Below are positions 7,291 to 55,447 of a stretch of 64,000 nucleotides of DNA, piece after piece. Under the pieces are notes generated by a model. That model was given only the letters and a program-made list of their open reading frames with translations, did not search any database and was not told the origin of the DNA. The position numbers were made by a program, and so were the translations under genes. Position 1 is the first letter of the stretch. The number at the start of each line of letters is the position of its first letter. Source of the DNA: Escherichia coli. Its GTDB lineage: Bacteria; Pseudomonadota; Gammaproteobacteria; Enterobacterales; Enterobacteriaceae. The stretch is taken from assembly GCF_003018255.1 (NCBI RefSeq), contig NZ_CP027440.1; one strand, given 5' to 3'.

Positions 7291-7322
7291 TGCCGGACAG
7301 GCGGTTAACGCCATATCCGGCC
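7291..7322. repeat. REP-like GC-rich palindromic element in the ibaG-mlaB intergenic region
   Basis: TGCCGGACAGGCGGTTAACGCCATATCCGGCC resembles the REP consensus (GCCGGATG...CCGGC) in inverted orientation. Confidence 0.6.
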
Positions 7323-20946: not shown

Positions 20947-21067
20947 GTGCGGCCTGAAAAACAGTGCTGTGCCCTTGTAACTCATCATAATAATTTACGG
21001 CGCAGCCAAGATTTCCCTGGTGTTGGCGCAGTATTCGCGCACCCCGGTCTAGCCGGGGTCATTTTTT
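20947..21067 (+). ncRNA. arcZ: ArcZ (RyhA/SraH) Hfq-dependent small RNA
   Basis: Sequence GTGCGGCCTGAAAAACAGTGCTGTGCCCTTGTAACTCATCATAATAATTTACGGCGCAGCCAAGATTTCCCTGGTGTTGGCGCAGTATTCGCGCACCCCGGTCTAGCCGGGGTCATTTTTT matches ArcZ as I recall it, including the terminator hairpin and U-tract; located between elbB and arcB and convergent with arcB. Confidence 0.9.
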
Positions 21068-29555: not shown

Positions 29556-30986
<1,431 letters not shown>

Positions 30987-31168
30987 GCCTGTCCCAGCGC
31001 CGCCTCCTCAGAAAAGAGTCGGCGCTGAAATTCTCCTTTCTTTCTGGAAAGCGCCTCGCATAATCTGAAGAAAACCAATGTAATACGCTCATCTGGATTG
31101 TTACCGGTAGATGCCCGGCGTATAGCTGATTCCATTATTCAACGCAGCGCCATATAAAGGGACAGATA

Positions 31169-32296
31169 ATGGAATCGCTCTCAGAGAGAACCTCAACAGG
31201 CTACCAGCAAATCCACGACGGTATTATTCACCTGGTCGATAGCGCCCGGACGGAAACGGTACGTAGCGTTAACGCGCTGATGACCGCGACATACTGGGAA
31301 ATTGGCCGACGAATTGTCGAATTTGAACAAGGTGGCGAGGCCAGGGCTGCGTATGGTGCGCAGCTAATCAAGCGACTATCAAAGGATTTAAGTCTAAGGT
31401 ATAAGCGTGGGTTCTCTGCAAAAAACTTACGCCAAATGAGGCTTTTTTACCTCTTTTTTCAACATGTTGAAATTCGCCAGACAGTGTCTGGCGAATTAAC
31501 ACCATTGGGAATTCCGCAGACACCATCTGCAGAATTCCCATCGGCAAAGATTTGGCAGACGCTGTCTGCCAAATCTTTCCCCCTGCCCTGGTCCACCTAC
31601 GTCCGTTTACTTTCCGTTAAAAACCCTGATGCCCGCAGCTTTTATGAAAAAGAGACGCTCCGCTGTGGTTGGTCTGTCCGCCAGCTAGAGCGGCAAATTA
31701 CGACCCAATTTTATGAGCGAACACTACTGTCACATGACAAATCAGCCATGCTGCAACAACACGCTCCTGCCGAGATGCATATTCTTCCGCAACAGGCGAT
31801 ACGCGATCCCTTTGTGCTCGAATTTCTGGAGTTGAAAGATGAATACTCAGAATCTGATTTTGAGGAGGCGCTGATCAACCACCTGATGGATTTCATGCTG
31901 GAACTTGGGGATGATTTTGCCTTTGTTGGTCGGCAGCGAAGGTTACGCATTGATGACAACTGGTTTCGGGTCGATCTGCTGTTTTTCCACCGCCGTTTAC
32001 GCTGCCTGCTAATCGTCGATCTAAAAGTGGGCAAATTCAGCTATAGCGATGCCGGACAGATGAATATGTATCTCAACTACGCCAAAGAGCACTGGACACT
32101 ACCGGATGAAAATCCGCCCATCGGTCTGGTTCTCTGTGCAGAGAAAGGAGCCGGCGAAGCGCATTATGCACTGGCTGGTTTGCCTAACACCGTTCTGGCG
32201 AGTGAATATAAGATGCAACTACCTGATGAAAAACGACTCGCGGATGAACTCGTTCGAACACAGGCGGTGTTAGAGGAAGGCTATAGACGCCGTTAA
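31169..32296 (+). CDS. yhcG: DUF1016 (YhcG-like) protein with predicted C-terminal PD-(D/E)XK nuclease fold
   Basis: 375 aa, MESLSERTSTGYQQIHDGIIHLVDSARTE...; sits directly after gltD with only a 182-bp spacer. Confidence 0.85.
   Translation: MESLSERTSTGYQQIHDGIIHLVDSARTETVRSVNALMTATYWEIGRRIVEFEQGGEARAAYGAQLIKRLSKDLSLRYKRGFSAKNLRQMRLFYLFFQHVEIRQTVSGELTPLGIPQTPSAEFPSAKIWQTLSAKSFPLPWSTYVRLLSVKNPDARSFYEKETLRCGWSVRQLERQITTQFYERTLLSHDKSAMLQQHAPAEMHILPQQAIRDPFVLEFLELKDEYSESDFEEALINHLMDFMLELGDDFAFVGRQRRLRIDDNWFRVDLLFFHRRLRCLLIVDLKVGKFSYSDAGQMNMYLNYAKEHWTLPDENPPIGLVLCAEKGAGEAHYALAGLPNTVLASEYKMQLPDEKRLADELVRTQAVLEEGYRRR
31471..31578. repeat. Three consecutive palindromes with CAGACA/TGTCTG cores inside the yhcG coding sequence
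   Basis: 31471-31497 AATTCGCCAGACA-G-TGTCTGGCGAATT (13-bp arms, perfect); 31509-31539 GGAATTCCGCAGAC-ACC-ATCTGCAGAATTCC (imperfect); 31546-31578 AAAGATTTGGCAGAC-GCT-GTCTGCCAAATCTTT (15-bp arms, perfect). Read directly from the sequence. Confidence 0.85.
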
Positions 32297-32311: not shown

Positions 32312-32336
32312 ATTCTCCAGACACTGTCTGGAGAAT
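32312..32336. repeat. Fourth copy of the same palindrome family, 16 bp after the yhcG stop, between convergent yhcG and yhcH
   Basis: ATTCTCCAGACA-C-TGTCTGGAGAAT, a perfect 12-bp-arm palindrome closely similar to the copy at 31471-31497; no flanking T-run, so not a classical intrinsic terminator. Confidence 0.85.
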
Positions 32337-34425: not shown

Positions 34426-35916
34426 TTAACTTTTGGTTTTGACTAAATCGTTTTTGGCGCGGCCAAATGGCACGGCACCGCTAAATGGTTTGCCGTCGAT
34501 AGCGTCATGAGTACGCAATGCTTCCGGGCGCAGCCAACGCTGAACGCGGGAAGGCATATCCAGACCAATCAGCAGGATCACCACAAATGTCAGACTGAAC
34601 GAGAGCGATGCCAGCGCAGTACCCAGATCCAGACGTTGAGCGATCAACGCGCCGATGATTGGGGCCAGTGCACCGCCCAATGCGCCGACGTTGTAGGTAA
34701 AGCCCAGGCCCGCTGCACGCTGGTCGGTATCGAAATAACCGCCAATCAGTTTCGGTAAGATCCCGGCGATCCCTTGTCCAAGCATTTGCTGGAAGAACAG
34801 TAACAGACCGAGCACCCAGACGTTTGCGCCGCCAATCGCAAATACCGGAATAATCAGCAGCTGCGAGGCCAGCAGACTACAAACGTACGCTTTGCGGGTT
34901 CCCAGCCAGTCACCGAGGAAGCCACCGACGCAGCACCCCACCGCCGCGCCAAAGCCACTAAAGAACAGCACATTGGCGACAGTATGCGGGTCATAAGCCA
35001 GATCGGTTTTCAGATACGTTGGCAGCAGCGCCTGAATCGGCCATGAGTAGAGGAAAGCAAACAACACGACCACCATCAGCATTACGCCCGTTGGCCAGCG
35101 TTTGCCCGTACTCTGCACCATAAAGCTGATAAAGATTGCGGCGCATAACAGCCCGAGTACAGCGACGATTGCGGCATTTTGCAGGTTACCGGCGAAGCAG
35201 AACCACAGCGCAGTAGCCGCCGCCAGCGTCATTACGATATTGGCAATGCGATGTTCACCACGGTAAAGAATGTCTACCATCGTGCGTACTGGTGCTTTAC
35301 CCCCGTGTTTCTCTTTCCAGTCTTCCGCTTCCGGGATGTTTTTACGCAGCCAGAGAGCAAAGATGATTGGCAAAATGCCGATAAAGAACAGCGCTCTCCA
35401 GCCCCAGACCGGAACCACCAGACTATAGACCTGAGCGGCAACGACGGCCCCCACAGAGAAGCCTGAAATCAAAAAACCACTGGCTTTGTTACGCAGATGT
35501 TTTGGCCAGCTTTCAATGACATAGGTGGCGCTGGAACCGTATTCACCCGCCATCCCCATGCCGATGACCAGACGCGCGATAAACATGGTGATGTAGCCTG
35601 GCGCAAAGCCGCAGGCCAGCGTCCCGGCCGAGAAGAGAACGATGCTGGTGACCATTGCCAGACGACGCCCGTAGCGGTCACCCATAGCGCCGAGCATCAG
35701 GCCGCCGAACCAGCGAGAGATAAAGGCTGCGGAGATCAGACTTGCCGCCTGCACCGTCGTCAGCCCGAATTCACCCTGTACTTCGGTGAGTACCAGGGCG
35801 ATTAAAACGAAATCAAAACCGTCAAGCAGATATCCCAACCAGGCAGCGGAAAATGCGCGCCATTGTGCACGGTTGAGATGGCGATACCACGGGATATTCT
35901 GGGTTGTAGTACTCAT
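34426..35916 (-). CDS. nanT: Sialic acid transporter (MFS)
   Basis: True start [22 protein letters not shown] (ATG confirmed at 35914-35916 on the minus strand), 496 aa, multi-pass membrane protein. Confidence 0.93.
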
Positions 35917-35985
35917 TGTGAGTCTCCCGCGGTGGGCGATGCCCACACGCTTTGGTATGAAAATTGTAGGGTACAGATGCGTTTA

Positions 35986-36018
35986 TTTCCCCTCACCCGG
36001 TAGGGGCGAGCGAGGGGA
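35986..36018. repeat. GC-rich imperfect palindromic repeat in the nanA-nanT intergenic region
   Basis: TTCCCCTCACCCGGTAGGGGCGAGCGAGGGGAAAA; shares TTCCCCTCACCC and GAGCGAGGGGA with the element at 53836-53870. Confidence 0.7.
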
Positions 36019-36025
36019 AAACAAC

Positions 36026-36919
36026 TCACCCGCGCTCTTGCATCAACTGCTGGGCCAGCGCCTTCAGTTCTGGCAGATATTTTTCATCTACCGGTCCAAA
36101 CGGTTTGCGGCACAGCGGCACAGAAACGACATCCATATAATGCAGGACAGTTTTCAGGCCGCGGAATACGCCCGTTTTGATCAGTAAATCAATGACTTTG
36201 TTGCACTCAGTTTGCAGTTTCTGCGCGGTCTGGATATCGCCTTCTTTCAGCGCCTTCACGATCCCCTGATATCGCCAGCCCATGATGTTGTAAGTACTGC
36301 CGATACCACCATCAGCGCCTGCCAGCAAGCCGGAAGCGAAGATTTCGTCGTAACCGTTATAGAGCACCAGATCAGGATGTTCACGACGGATCTGTTCCAT
36401 CTGATAGAGATCGCCAGAAGTCTGTTTCAGCGCACCGACGCCAGGCAACGTAACCAGGGTGTTGATCTGATCCAGGGTCAGTTTTACCCCACTCAGGGCT
36501 GGAATGTTGTACACCACCATCGGCAAACCATCCGCCGAATCAATAATTGCCCGATAGTGATCGCAGTGTTCTTCAAAGCTGAAAGGATAGTAGAACGGCG
36601 TGACGGCGGAGACGGCATCGAAGCCATAACGTTTAGCCGATGCCGCAAGTTGTTGGCTTTCGGCGGTGCTGACGCAACCGACGTGGGCGATGAGTTTAAT
36701 CTTACCTTTCGCCTCTTCAGCGACGATTTCCAGTACCTGTTCACGCTCGGAAAGGCTTTGTACAAAGGCTTCGCCGGTAGAACCACCCACGTATAAACCG
36801 TCGATGCCCTGCTGAATATTGAACTGAACCAGGCGACGCAGACTCGCTTTATCCAGTGCTTGTTGTTGATCAAAAGGAGTCAGGAGTGCGGCCATTACGC
36901 CACGTAAATTCGTTGCCAT
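36026..36919 (-). CDS. nanA: N-acetylneuraminate lyase
   Basis: 297 aa, [50 protein letters not shown]... Confidence 0.97.
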
Positions 36920-52863: not shown

Positions 52864-53793
52864 ATGGAACGACTAAAACGCATGTCGGTGTTTGCCAAAG
52901 TAGTTGAATTTGGCTCTTTTACCGCCGCCGCCAGACAGCTACAGATGAGCGTTTCGTCCATCAGTCAGACGGTGTCAAAACTGGAAGATGAGTTACAGGT
53001 AAAGCTGTTAAACCGTAGTACACGCAGCATTGGCCTGACTGAAGCCGGCAGAATTTACTACCAGGGCTGCCGTCGGATGCTCCATGAAGTGCAGGATGTT
53101 CATGAGCAACTGTATGCCTTCAATAACACCCCCATCGGGACGCTGCGCATTGGCTGTTCTTCAACTATGGCACAAAATGTTCTCGCCGGGCTGACAGCAA
53201 AAATGCTGAAAGAATACCCAGGTTTGAGCGTCAATCTGGTTACCGGAATTCCTGCCCCCGACCTGATTGCCGATGGTCTGGATGTGGTGATCCGCGTCGG
53301 CGCGTTGCAGGATTCCAGCCTGTTTTCCCGCCGTCTGGGCGCGATGCCGATGGTGGTGTGCGCCGCGAAAAGCTATCTCACACAATACGGCATACCGGAA
53401 AAACCCGCCGATTTGAGTAGTCATTCATGGCTTGAATACAGCGTGCGGCCCGACAATGAATTTGAACTGATCGCACCGGAAGGGATCTCGACTCGCCTGA
53501 TCCCACAAGGAAGATTTGTGACTAATGATCCGATGACGCTGGTGCGCTGGCTGACGGCGGGTGCCGGGATCGCCTACGTGCCGCTGATGTGGGTGATCAA
53601 CGAGATCAATCGTGGGGAACTGGAGATCCTGCTGCCGCGTTATCAGTCAGATCCACGCCCGGTTTATGCGTTATATACCGAAAAAGATAAGCTGCCGCTG
53701 AAGGTACAGGTCGTGATCAACTCGCTGACGGATTATTTTGTTGAGGTCGGTAAATTGTTTCAGGAGATGCACGGGCGCGGGAAAGAGAAGTAA
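52864..53793 (+). CDS. aaeR: LysR-family activator of the aaeXAB operon
   Basis: 309 aa; N-terminal HTH MERLKRMSVFAKVVEFGSFTAAARQLQMSVSSISQTV; divergent from aaeX. Confidence 0.93.
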   Translation: MERLKRMSVFAKVVEFGSFTAAARQLQMSVSSISQTVSKLEDELQVKLLNRSTRSIGLTEAGRIYYQGCRRMLHEVQDVHEQLYAFNNTPIGTLRIGCSSTMAQNVLAGLTAKMLKEYPGLSVNLVTGIPAPDLIADGLDVVIRVGALQDSSLFSRRLGAMPMVVCAAKSYLTQYGIPEKPADLSSHSWLEYSVRPDNEFELIAPEGISTRLIPQGRFVTNDPMTLVRWLTAGAGIAYVPLMWVINEINRGELEILLPRYQSDPRPVYALYTEKDKLPLKVQVVINSLTDYFVEVGKLFQEMHGRGKEK

Positions 53794-53835
53794 TTCATAT
53801 TGTACTGTTACGTTGTACAAACCTGTGCCAACGGG

Positions 53836-53870
53836 TTCCCCTCACCCTAACCCCAGAGGAGCGAGGGGAC
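53836..53870. repeat. GC-rich imperfect palindromic repeat between convergent aaeR and tldD
   Basis: GTTCCCCTCACCCTAACCCCAGAGGAGCGAGGGGAC; same family as 35986-36018. Confidence 0.7.
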
Positions 53871-53920
53871 CGTTCGTGCACGTAGAAAGATTAATTATCC
53901 TTCTGAAAATACTGAAATTA

Positions 53921-55381
<1,461 letters not shown>

Positions 55382-55413: not shown

Positions 55414-55447
55414 GCCGGATGCGGCGTGAACGCCCTGTCCGGCCTAC
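55414..55447. repeat. REP (repetitive extragenic palindrome) element in the tldD-yhdP intergenic region
   Basis: GCCGGATGCGGCGTGAACGCCCTGTCCGGCCTAC closely matches the canonical E. coli REP sequence. Confidence 0.85.

Follow-up and report, generated by a model that had tools for sequence, protein, structure and literature searches.

The repeat family first named BoxC was renamed PIT element, for potential intrastrand triplex, and then TMECO (reviewed by Holder et al. 2015, PMC4666352). Its literature includes the work of Bachellier et al. in the 1990s and of Hoyne and Maher (2000/2002), and the same motif was redescribed as a G-quadruplex/hairpin switch, HPGQ (Kaplan et al. 2016, PMC5100583). 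In K-12, 23 TMECO copies are listed in Table 1 of Holder et al. 2015 (PMC4666352), and the old GenBank annotation held 33 BoxC of 51-59 bp (table in PMC5172473). On its sense strand the full unit reads CCCTCGCCCC-TTT-GGGGAGAGGG-TTA-GGGTGAGGGG, that is, a C block, a loop, a G block, a 3-nt loop and another G block, an architecture that Holder et al. 2015 define as CCCTCNCCC-N3-6-GGGNGAGGG-N3-GGGNGAGGG. Judged from its sequence, the G-rich arm amounts to a short array of GGGNNA hexamers.

The DNA analysed here, hereafter the window, is a 64-kb stretch of the Escherichia coli chromosome that corresponds to approximately 3.34-3.40 Mb of K-12. A 601-nt portion of the window is 100% identical to several non-K-12 E. 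coli strains. An earlier note had drawn attention to two GC-rich imperfect palindromes of approximately 35 bp with near-identical ends, one in the nanA-nanT spacer and the other in the aaeR-tldD spacer, and had left their family unnamed. We consider, with a probability of about 0.8, that both are decayed BoxC (PIT, TMECO, HPGQ) relics of Enterobacteria in which only a hairpin is retained. The finding as it stood is of minor importance: the family has been in E. coli catalogues for some 30 years, and the window copies are eroded; their identity is already known in kind, and the nan copy is an uncatalogued relic of it. The part worth following up is the association of BoxC with DUF559 genes, a bracketing previously unremarked.

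Two palindromes of one family

Both palindromes are intergenic, in the following gene context:

34426 to a start codon at 35914-35916, minus strand: nanT, in the same operon as nanA
36026-36919, minus strand: nanA, in the same operon as nanT
52864-53793, plus strand: aaeR, convergent with tldD
53921-55366, minus strand: tldD, convergent with aaeR

These coordinates agree with the placement first proposed, one copy lying within an operon and the other between convergent genes. The shared ends are equally well founded: the window holds just two matches to the pattern CCCCTCACCC-N8-20-GAGCGAGGGG, 35989-36017 and 53838-53868, each on the plus strand, and 100 dinucleotide-preserving shuffles gave none. 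The 10-mer GAGCGAGGGG common to both copies extends past the family consensus GGGCGAGGGG. Its extra bases derive from a 4-nt CGAG/TCGC duplication in the nan copy and, in the aaeR-tldD copy, from a C-to-T change that only some of the short alleles carry. On this comparison, the similarity of the two copies beyond the consensus is coincidental and was reached by separate routes.

The family is named by the aaeR-tldD copy, which is the positional ortholog of the catalogued TMECO #14, CCCTCGCCCCTTTGGGGTGAGGGTTAGGGTGAGGGG, located at K-12 3390494-3390529, with aaeR 44 nt away and tldD 53 nt away (Holder et al. 2015, PMC4666352). The K-12 sequence contains TMECO #14 and fits the three-block pattern, and the window allele aligns to it with a single 6-nt gap. 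When a family profile built from the 22 other K-12 TMECOs, with the ortholog (#14) left out, was searched over the 64 kb, it matched 53838-53867 on the minus strand with 23.1 bits (E = 5.5e-6), spanning model positions 1-36 with a 6-nt deletion. BoxC, which the earlier note had listed among the repeat families to compare, is thus the family itself, by orthology with TMECO #14 and by profile. Further copies, for which a genome-wide search had been proposed, abound: the 36-nt BoxC consensus matches 5,413 of 5,426 E. coli genomes, at a median of 18 places each (range 1-32). Beyond E. coli, the three-block motif is multi-copy in many lineages among the matches listed in species-representative genomes, where copy numbers are lower bounds; these include Pseudomonas sp. 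dw_612, Bradyrhizobium, Hyphomonadaceae, Hyphomicrobiales, Methylobacillus, Mitsuaria, a Thermodesulfobacteriota MAG, an AT-rich rumen MAG and others, and a Gemmataceae MAG holds at least 61 copies. TMECO is reported to be missing from Salmonella.

A chance resemblance between two unrelated GC-rich palindromes would be conceivable for elements this short, and the bases shared past the consensus (GAGCGAGGGG against GGGCGAGGGG) did arise independently. Nevertheless, the empty shuffles, the alignment to a catalogued member at the same position, the profile match and the abundance of the family refute this reading, whose probability is vanishingly small.

The two sites are also distinct from REP elements, as had been claimed: neither matches the REP consensus GCCGGATGCGGCG-N4-CGCCTTATCCGGCCTAC with up to 3 mismatches allowed. 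The only site of the window that does is 55414-55447, with 2 mismatches, so that one of the two REPs previously reported stands, while the other, at 7291-7322, is REP-like only by eye. At Rfam 15 gathering thresholds, ArcZ was the only match in the window and neither site matched; permissive scans of both sites yielded only chance sub-threshold matches, the best of 19 bits against a threshold of 71.

The description of both sites as palindromes of about 35 bp is sound; as a definition of the element it falls short, since the canonical unit has three blocks. The three-block pattern has no match in the 64-kb window, whereas the K-12 ortholog of the aaeR-tldD copy does match it, and both window copies are hence derivatives and not canonical BoxC members. 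They look like simple palindromes because part of the G-rich arm was lost. The RNA fold check suggested at the outset returned stable hairpins at both sites, stronger on the minus strand, because C·A mismatches between the plus-strand arms of both imperfect palindromes become G·U pairs there. The nan copy folds at -27.4 kcal/mol (z = -6.5) on the minus strand against -18.1 (z = -2.5) on the plus strand, and the aaeR-tldD copy at -25.5 kcal/mol against -22.2.

Probable stepwise decay at the aaeR-tldD locus

The aaeR-tldD copy comprises two overlapping features:

53838-53868, minus strand: aaeR-tldD BoxC, minus-6 allele, CCCCTCGCTCC-TCT-GGGG-TTA-GGGTGAGGGG, the middle G block being reduced to GGGG
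53831-53875, minus strand: extended aaeR-tldD hairpin (fold of -25.5 kcal/mol, z = -2.75), its stem lengthened by the flanks GAACGG and CCCGUU

Relative to TMECO #14, this copy misses one GGGNNA hexamer of the G-rich arm. Three main alleles segregate among 5,421 genomes, their G-rich arms being given below on the minus strand and their lengths as match lengths of the spacer region:

Full allele: G-GGG(T/A)GA-GGGTTA-GGGTGA-GGGG, 157 nt; K-12, O157 and RM14721; about 2,035 genomes (about 38%)
Minus-6 allele: G-GGGTTA-GGGTGA-GGGG, 151 nt; the window; about 2,778 genomes (about 51%)
Minus-12 allele: G-GGGTTA-GGGG, 145 nt; Ecol_867; about 608 genomes (about 11%)

The counts are estimates from BLAST identity bands obtained with the K-12 allele as query and read via sampled rows, and a query with the window allele gave consistent numbers. 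Length variants of 150 and 148 nt were also sampled, which brings the locus to at least five length alleles. In two genomes, ISEc13 lies within the minus-12 relic, with a target duplication of AACCCCAG.

Full alleles carry GGG(A/T)GA-GGGTTA-GGGTGA, a hexamer order that could not arise from a short allele by tandem duplication, which makes deletion the parsimonious direction of change. The full-to-short direction is accordingly inferred from parsimony within E. coli. Replication slippage among the GGGNNA hexamers would be the likely agent, having presumably removed one hexamer at aaeR-tldD and two at nanA-nanT. What such decay would leave is a C block paired with the surviving GGGTGAGGGG through one or two G·T(U) wobbles, and this two-block residue, a plain GC-rich hairpin, would no longer be capable of the three-strand fold-back of the full element. 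The aaeR-tldD locus, with its full, minus-6, minus-12 and IS-disrupted forms, offers a clean series from nature that links the reported 'instability' to the stepwise loss of GGGNNA, of which the nan copy is the stable end state.

The same instability, with its length alleles and the IS insertion in two genomes, could be read as the mark of a non-B DNA structure, an intrastrand purine-motif triplex or a G-quadruplex, that stalls replication as proposed for TMECO/HPGQ. Yet a triplex requires a second G block, which is missing from both window copies; they leave the three-block pattern unmatched and keep only two or three G runs, fewer than the four of a four-run quadruplex. Moreover, Holder et al. 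2015 (PMC4666352) saw no triplex either in duplex DNA or in DMS footprints taken in vivo. Steps of six are more simply explained by the slippage of GGGNNA that we infer, and the nan copy, in which no tandem hexamers remain, is stable. A triplex is not expected from either copy, as their sequences lack or truncate the second G block, and structural stalling of replication appears very improbable as the explanation of these sites.

The nanA-nanT copy

The nan copy resides directly downstream of nanA on the minus strand, which is the nan mRNA strand, and comprises the following features:

35986-36020, minus strand: two-block hairpin with arms at 36007-36020 and 35986-35999 and a loop at 36000-36006, also detected as an inverted repeat
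35989-35998, minus strand: G block GGGTGAGGGG, identical to the consensus third block of BoxC/TMECO
36003-36017, minus strand: C arm CCCCTCGCTCGCCCC, which is the BoxC C block CCCCTCGCCCC plus a 4-nt TCGC duplication
36026-36028, minus strand: UGA stop codon of nanA, with the GC core of the hairpin 8 nt downstream, or 7 nt in alleles one U shorter

In the mRNA, the hairpin reads UUUU-CCCCUCGCUCGCCCC-UACC-GGGUGAGGGG-AAAU. The family profile scores it as the second-best site in the 64 kb, a match of 7.1 bits (E = 0.57), not significant by itself, at 35990-36010 on the minus strand over model positions 3-23, and the GGGTGAGGGG and CCCCTCGC blocks are present exactly. Its membership in BoxC is suggested by this exact block identity together with synteny in Pseudocitrobacter and Kluyvera. 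Among the nanA-nanT spacers of nine other sequences that we compared, that of Pseudocitrobacter carries in the same slot an inverted pair of canonical BoxC units, between flanks that are both homologous to E. coli (TGAGTT… and …AAACGCATC); this positional match comes from another genus and is weaker than the orthology at aaeR-tldD. Kluyvera has a degenerate BoxC-like hairpin there. REPs occupy the slot in Citrobacter (two species), Yokenella, Enterobacter and one Salmonella, and other hairpins do so in a second Salmonella and in Klebsiella. A hairpin-forming element thus lies at most about 15 nt from the nanA stop in 9/9 of these spacers, and the slot past that stop is repeatedly taken by hairpin repeats of different families.

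Within E. coli, every allele sampled, from K-12 to the most divergent, has the same hairpin, and variation is confined to the U run and to positions farther downstream. Of 5,408 E. coli genomes, 4,624 have a spacer of at least 99% identity. No earlier description of a nanA-nanT stem-loop turned up in a literature search.

A selected intercistronic RNA element that sets the NanA:NanT ratio would produce the same picture. Such a role concerns function only and is compatible with a BoxC origin. Two routes can be envisaged: a block to 3'-to-5' exonucleases that stabilises the nanA segment, as for the REP in malE-malF, or a ribosome stall that lowers NanA. Down-regulation of translation has been reported for REPs less than 16 nt from a stop codon (Liang et al. 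2015, as summarised in PMC12306157). The GC core, 8 nt after UGA, falls within that range, and the very stable fold of -27.4 kcal/mol (z = -6.5) arises specifically on the mRNA strand, where mismatches become G·U. The invariance of the hairpin and its strong fold on the transcribed strand are also expected under selection on an RNA element. On the other hand, the whole 141-nt spacer is as conserved as the hairpin, with no variation that could yield covariation, and the occupancy of the slot in all nine spacers may reflect tolerance to insertion instead of selection. Small palindromic repeats often accumulate directly 3' of genes. Invariance, strand asymmetry and recurrent occupancy fit a selected element; none of them discriminates it from neutrality. 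Together with the transcript data and the inactivity of full BoxC elements presented below, this makes selection for a nan regulatory element unlikely, if far from negligible, beside the plain decay of a BoxC unit.

Transcription and the search for a function

Both hairpins are stable, GC-rich and located directly after stop codons, features that would also suit transcription terminators: an intra-operon attenuator in nan and a bidirectional terminator between aaeR and tldD. Bidirectional terminators are often shared by convergent gene pairs. However, no U tract follows the stem at either site on either strand, the nan flanks 5'-UUUU…AAAU-3' merely lengthening the stem, and a terminator scan of both strands over 35850-36100 and 53750-53960 returned no terminator-like site. 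In K-12 Term-seq data (Adams et al. 2021), acquired in LB and in M63 glucose with nan uninduced, no 3' end maps to 33726xx or to 33904xx-33905xx, the positions of the two loci, which speaks against a terminator and against a processed nan element alike. The same data place a Rho termination region at 3390148 on the minus strand, beyond the element on the tldD strand, which means that tldD transcripts read through the aaeR-tldD copy. In published tests, full BoxC elements acted neither as promoters nor as terminators and left RNA polymerase unaffected (Holder et al. 2015, PMC4666352), and terminator activity was absent from PIT elements in reporter tests (cited in PMC4666352). The terminator explanation is close to refuted.

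The roles first suggested for these repeats, as transcript-stabilising or attenuating structures or as protein-binding sites, find no support here: the U tract, a terminator-like score and a Term-seq 3' end are all wanting, and full elements were inactive when tested. The proposed comparison with transcript 3'-end data likewise came out negative at both loci in LB and M63 glucose. Neither copy, nor the BoxC family overall, has a demonstrated function. A REP-like effect of the hairpin at the nanA stop is possible: 8 nt past the stop, the stem-loop could hold back 3' exonucleases or hinder the terminating ribosome, in the manner of a stop-proximal REP. The aaeR-tldD hairpin would be a passive passenger in the tldD 3' UTR.

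BoxC units and DUF559 endonuclease genes

Intact BoxC units frequently bracket genes of the DUF559 family, and this may explain the origin of the repeats. The rumen MAG has a 126-aa DUF559 ORF (E = 1.6e-38) flanked by an inverted BoxC pair and ending inside its right-hand unit, and in a Pirellulaceae locus BoxC units lie on either side of a DUF559 gene, in a pair orientation opposite to that of the rumen MAG. To our knowledge, ycjD is the only DUF559 gene of K-12. Its last codons and stop form a BoxC-like unit (…SPSP*; CCCTCTCCC-TGAAA-GAGCGAGGGGG), and downstream lie a partial duplicate of the ycjD 3' end and then TMECO #9. Most of the best 120 YcjD homologs end in PSPRPSP*, SPSP* or PSPQPSP*, which is antisense BoxC read in frame.

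The association was measured in 80 metagenomic loci, with DUF559 cores aligned after their tails were trimmed and search patterns drawn from the catalytic core. BoxC 9-mers occur within 200 nt of the DUF559 gene in 49/80 loci, and on both sides in 37/80; their density falls from 8.62 per kb near DUF559 to 0.11 per kb at distances above 300 nt, an approximately 78-fold difference. A full three-block unit lies within 250 nt of the gene in 36 of the 80. The usual order is a sense BoxC, 5-24 nt, the ORF, and an antisense BoxC at or just past the stop. The same sense-then-antisense order, with 16-27 nt between the units, is found in 4/5 of the K-12 TMECO doublets.

YcjD matches PDB 3hrl (E = 1e-27), DUF559 being a Vsr-like PD-(D/E)XK nuclease, and the family has been grouped with Vsr and a homing endonuclease (PMC3424549). 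DUF559 genes are also enriched among predicted programmed-inversion targets, a report in which no link to BoxC was drawn (Milman et al. 2023); that enrichment would fit flanking inverted BoxC repeats. Our literature search found no paper linking DUF559 or ycjD with BoxC, PIT or TMECO.

We tentatively propose that BoxC units, the two window relics included, are dispersed non-autonomous partners of a DUF559 nuclease (YcjD in E. coli), which would make them a second REPIN-RAYT-like system; this is a possibility held with less than even confidence. The physical association is measured; the recognition, nicking, copying or maintenance of BoxC by the enzyme is only putative. A full cassette would begin with a sense BoxC, followed after 5-24 nt by a DUF559 ORF of about 110-135 aa and then by an antisense BoxC, which often provides the ORF with its final codons and stop. 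Inverted BoxC doublets would then be the empty form, and solo units or two-block hairpins the eroded form. Block 1 folded onto block 3 would create a T·G mismatch, speculatively a cue for recognition. T·G mismatches are the type of lesion cut by Vsr enzymes.

The 64-kb window holds no DUF559 gene, and inspection of the flanks of BoxC-DUF559 cassettes, short of a formal search, revealed no target-site duplication. The ycjD region is lacking from about 38% of E. coli genomes, which we considered and rejected as evidence of mobility: O157 has other genes in place of this segment and lacks a BoxC where they join, so that the region is not a clean empty site and is uninformative about mobility. A Hyphomonadaceae locus was also set aside, its DUF559 gene being 4.6 kb away from BoxC.

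Comparison with known systems

With BoxC/PIT/TMECO elements, the window copies share the CCCCTCGC… and GGGTGAGGGG blocks, the TTA loop of the 'type A' TMECOs, an intergenic location and a multi-copy distribution in E. coli. Their decay between strains corresponds to the 'TMECO mutated' class of Holder et al. 2015 (PMC4666352). They differ in being 6 or 12 nt shorter and in missing one G block, so that the triplex is not expected. The nan copy further has the 4-nt duplication of its C arm and is not among the 23 listed K-12 TMECOs. ERIC/IRU and RSA, of about 127 bp and 150/151 bp, respectively (PMC5172473), are set apart from the window copies by length alone.

REP/BIME elements resemble BoxC in how they work and not by membership: both are short GC-rich intergenic repeats that form hairpins, often directly downstream of a stop codon; both are found alone or in inverted doublets, and REPs fill the nanA-proximal slot in other genera. 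MITEs (ERIC/IRU, RUP and Correia-type) find a parallel in inverted BoxC pairs with a short core, as in the Pseudocitrobacter nan spacer, in a composite of about 160 nt in Pseudomonas sp. dw_612 and at five K-12 sites; by this analogy, the window copies would be solo or eroded ends. Unlike MITEs, BoxC pairs have no known transposase and occur in both outward and inward orientation.

A clear parallel to the DUF559 cassettes is the REPIN-RAYT system, in which REP doublets flank a single-copy RAYT gene much as BoxC doublets flank a DUF559 gene. The sequences of REP and BoxC are unrelated, no mobilisation has been shown for BoxC, and the BoxC-associated protein has a Vsr-like PD-(D/E)XK fold and is not an IS200/IS605-type HUH transposase. 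For a near-identical 36-nt motif that is multi-copy across Proteobacteria, Planctomycetes and other phyla, DUF559, represented by YcjD in E. coli, offers a concrete and testable candidate partner.

BoxC Units Around DUF559 Genes

Inverted units of BoxC, the small GC-rich repeat whose relics lie in the nanA-nanT and aaeR-tldD spacers of the window, bracket genes of the DUF559 (Vsr-like endonuclease) family in many of a set of 80 metagenome loci (L147-L226). The same arrangement is found at three further loci outside the window:

L029 6986-7435, BoxC-bracketed DUF559 gene
L075 10956-11434, BoxC-bracketed DUF559 gene
L146 (K-12 1349500-1352500) 1700-2261, BoxC-bracketed DUF559 gene (ycjD)

BoxC 9-mers occur at most 200 nt from the DUF559 gene in 49 of the 80 metagenome loci; across the set, their density falls from 8.62 per kb by the gene to 0.11 per kb in more distant flanking sequence. 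The repeat also extends into the coding sequence, the C-terminal tails of E. coli YcjD and most homologs (PSPRPSP* or SPSP*) being encoded by BoxC. No published description of the DUF559-BoxC association was found in a literature search.

Of 5,426 E. coli genomes, only 3,375 cover at least 80% of the ycjD/BoxC segment, which adjoins fabI (L146 1541-2328; L227); in O157:H7, genes for a TetR regulator and for RND efflux occupy its place. In K-12, a partial copy of the ycjD 3' end separates ycjD from TMECO #9, the BoxC copy located beyond it, and a 16-bp perfect palindrome (CACCTCATTCTGACAA…TTGTCAGAATGAGGTG) overlaps the ycjD start.

Spacers and Neighboring Features of the Window

The minus-12 allele of the aaeR-tldD relic, 12 nt shorter than the full unit, harbors the IS4-family element ISEc13 in two E. 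coli genomes (NZ_OW967795 and NZ_LT903847; L009/L145), flanked by the target duplication AACCCCAG and with Tn5-like ends (CTGTCTCTT…):

L144 2560-2580 and 4125-4140, ISEc13 insertion in the aaeR-tldD BoxC relic

In other genera, the first ~15 nt past the nanA stop codon hold hairpin-forming repeats whose type differs by genus (nanA-nanT spacers L130-L138), namely REP in Citrobacter, Yokenella, Enterobacter and one Salmonella, and BoxC in Pseudocitrobacter and Kluyvera. A second small hairpin, GCG-U-GUGGGC…GCCCAC-CGC (window 35929-35950, minus strand), lies directly upstream of the nanT Shine-Dalgarno sequence and is kept in Escherichia, Pseudocitrobacter, Kluyvera, Salmonella and Klebsiella, with one G-C pair replaced by A-U in Salmonella and by G·U in Klebsiella. 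As a candidate for a functional nanT leader structure, this hairpin is preferable to the nan BoxC relic. Early in the operon, Term-seq of uninduced K-12 detected a strong 3' end at 3373531 (minus strand), 45 nt inside the nanA ORF (Adams et al., 2021); this position, which corresponds to approximately 36874 in the window, suggests premature termination or processing.

Two other features of the window are as follows:

20947-21054, plus strand, ArcZ sRNA (Rfam, 120.8 bits), the sole Rfam match at gathering threshold within the window
31169-32296, yhcG (DUF1016) ORF

yhcG comes almost immediately after gltD (30986-31169), and the K-12 segment gltF-yhcA-yhcD-yhcE(IS5)-yhcF appears to be missing from the source strain. 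A CCAGACA/TGTCTGG core is common to several near-perfect palindromes that occur within and just past the yhcG ORF (31471-31581 and 32312-32336), for example AATTCGCCAGACA/TGTCTGGCGAATT and GGCAAAGATTTGGCAGAC/GTCTGCCAAATCTTTCC inside it, and ATTCTCCAGACA/TGTCTGGAGAAT just 3' of it.

BoxC Composites in Other Lineages

Among the matches listed, Gemmataceae copies of BoxC are bare cores of ~40 nt, and inverted pairs are found in Bradyrhizobium and Hyphomonadaceae. In Pseudomonas sp. dw_612 (L030-L050), BoxC units form both ends of a composite repeat, mostly ~160 nt and up to ~290 nt long, with a conserved ~100-nt core and at least 17 copies among the matches listed. Because its inverted symmetry continues past the BoxC ends for a few bases, the architecture of this composite is MITE-like.
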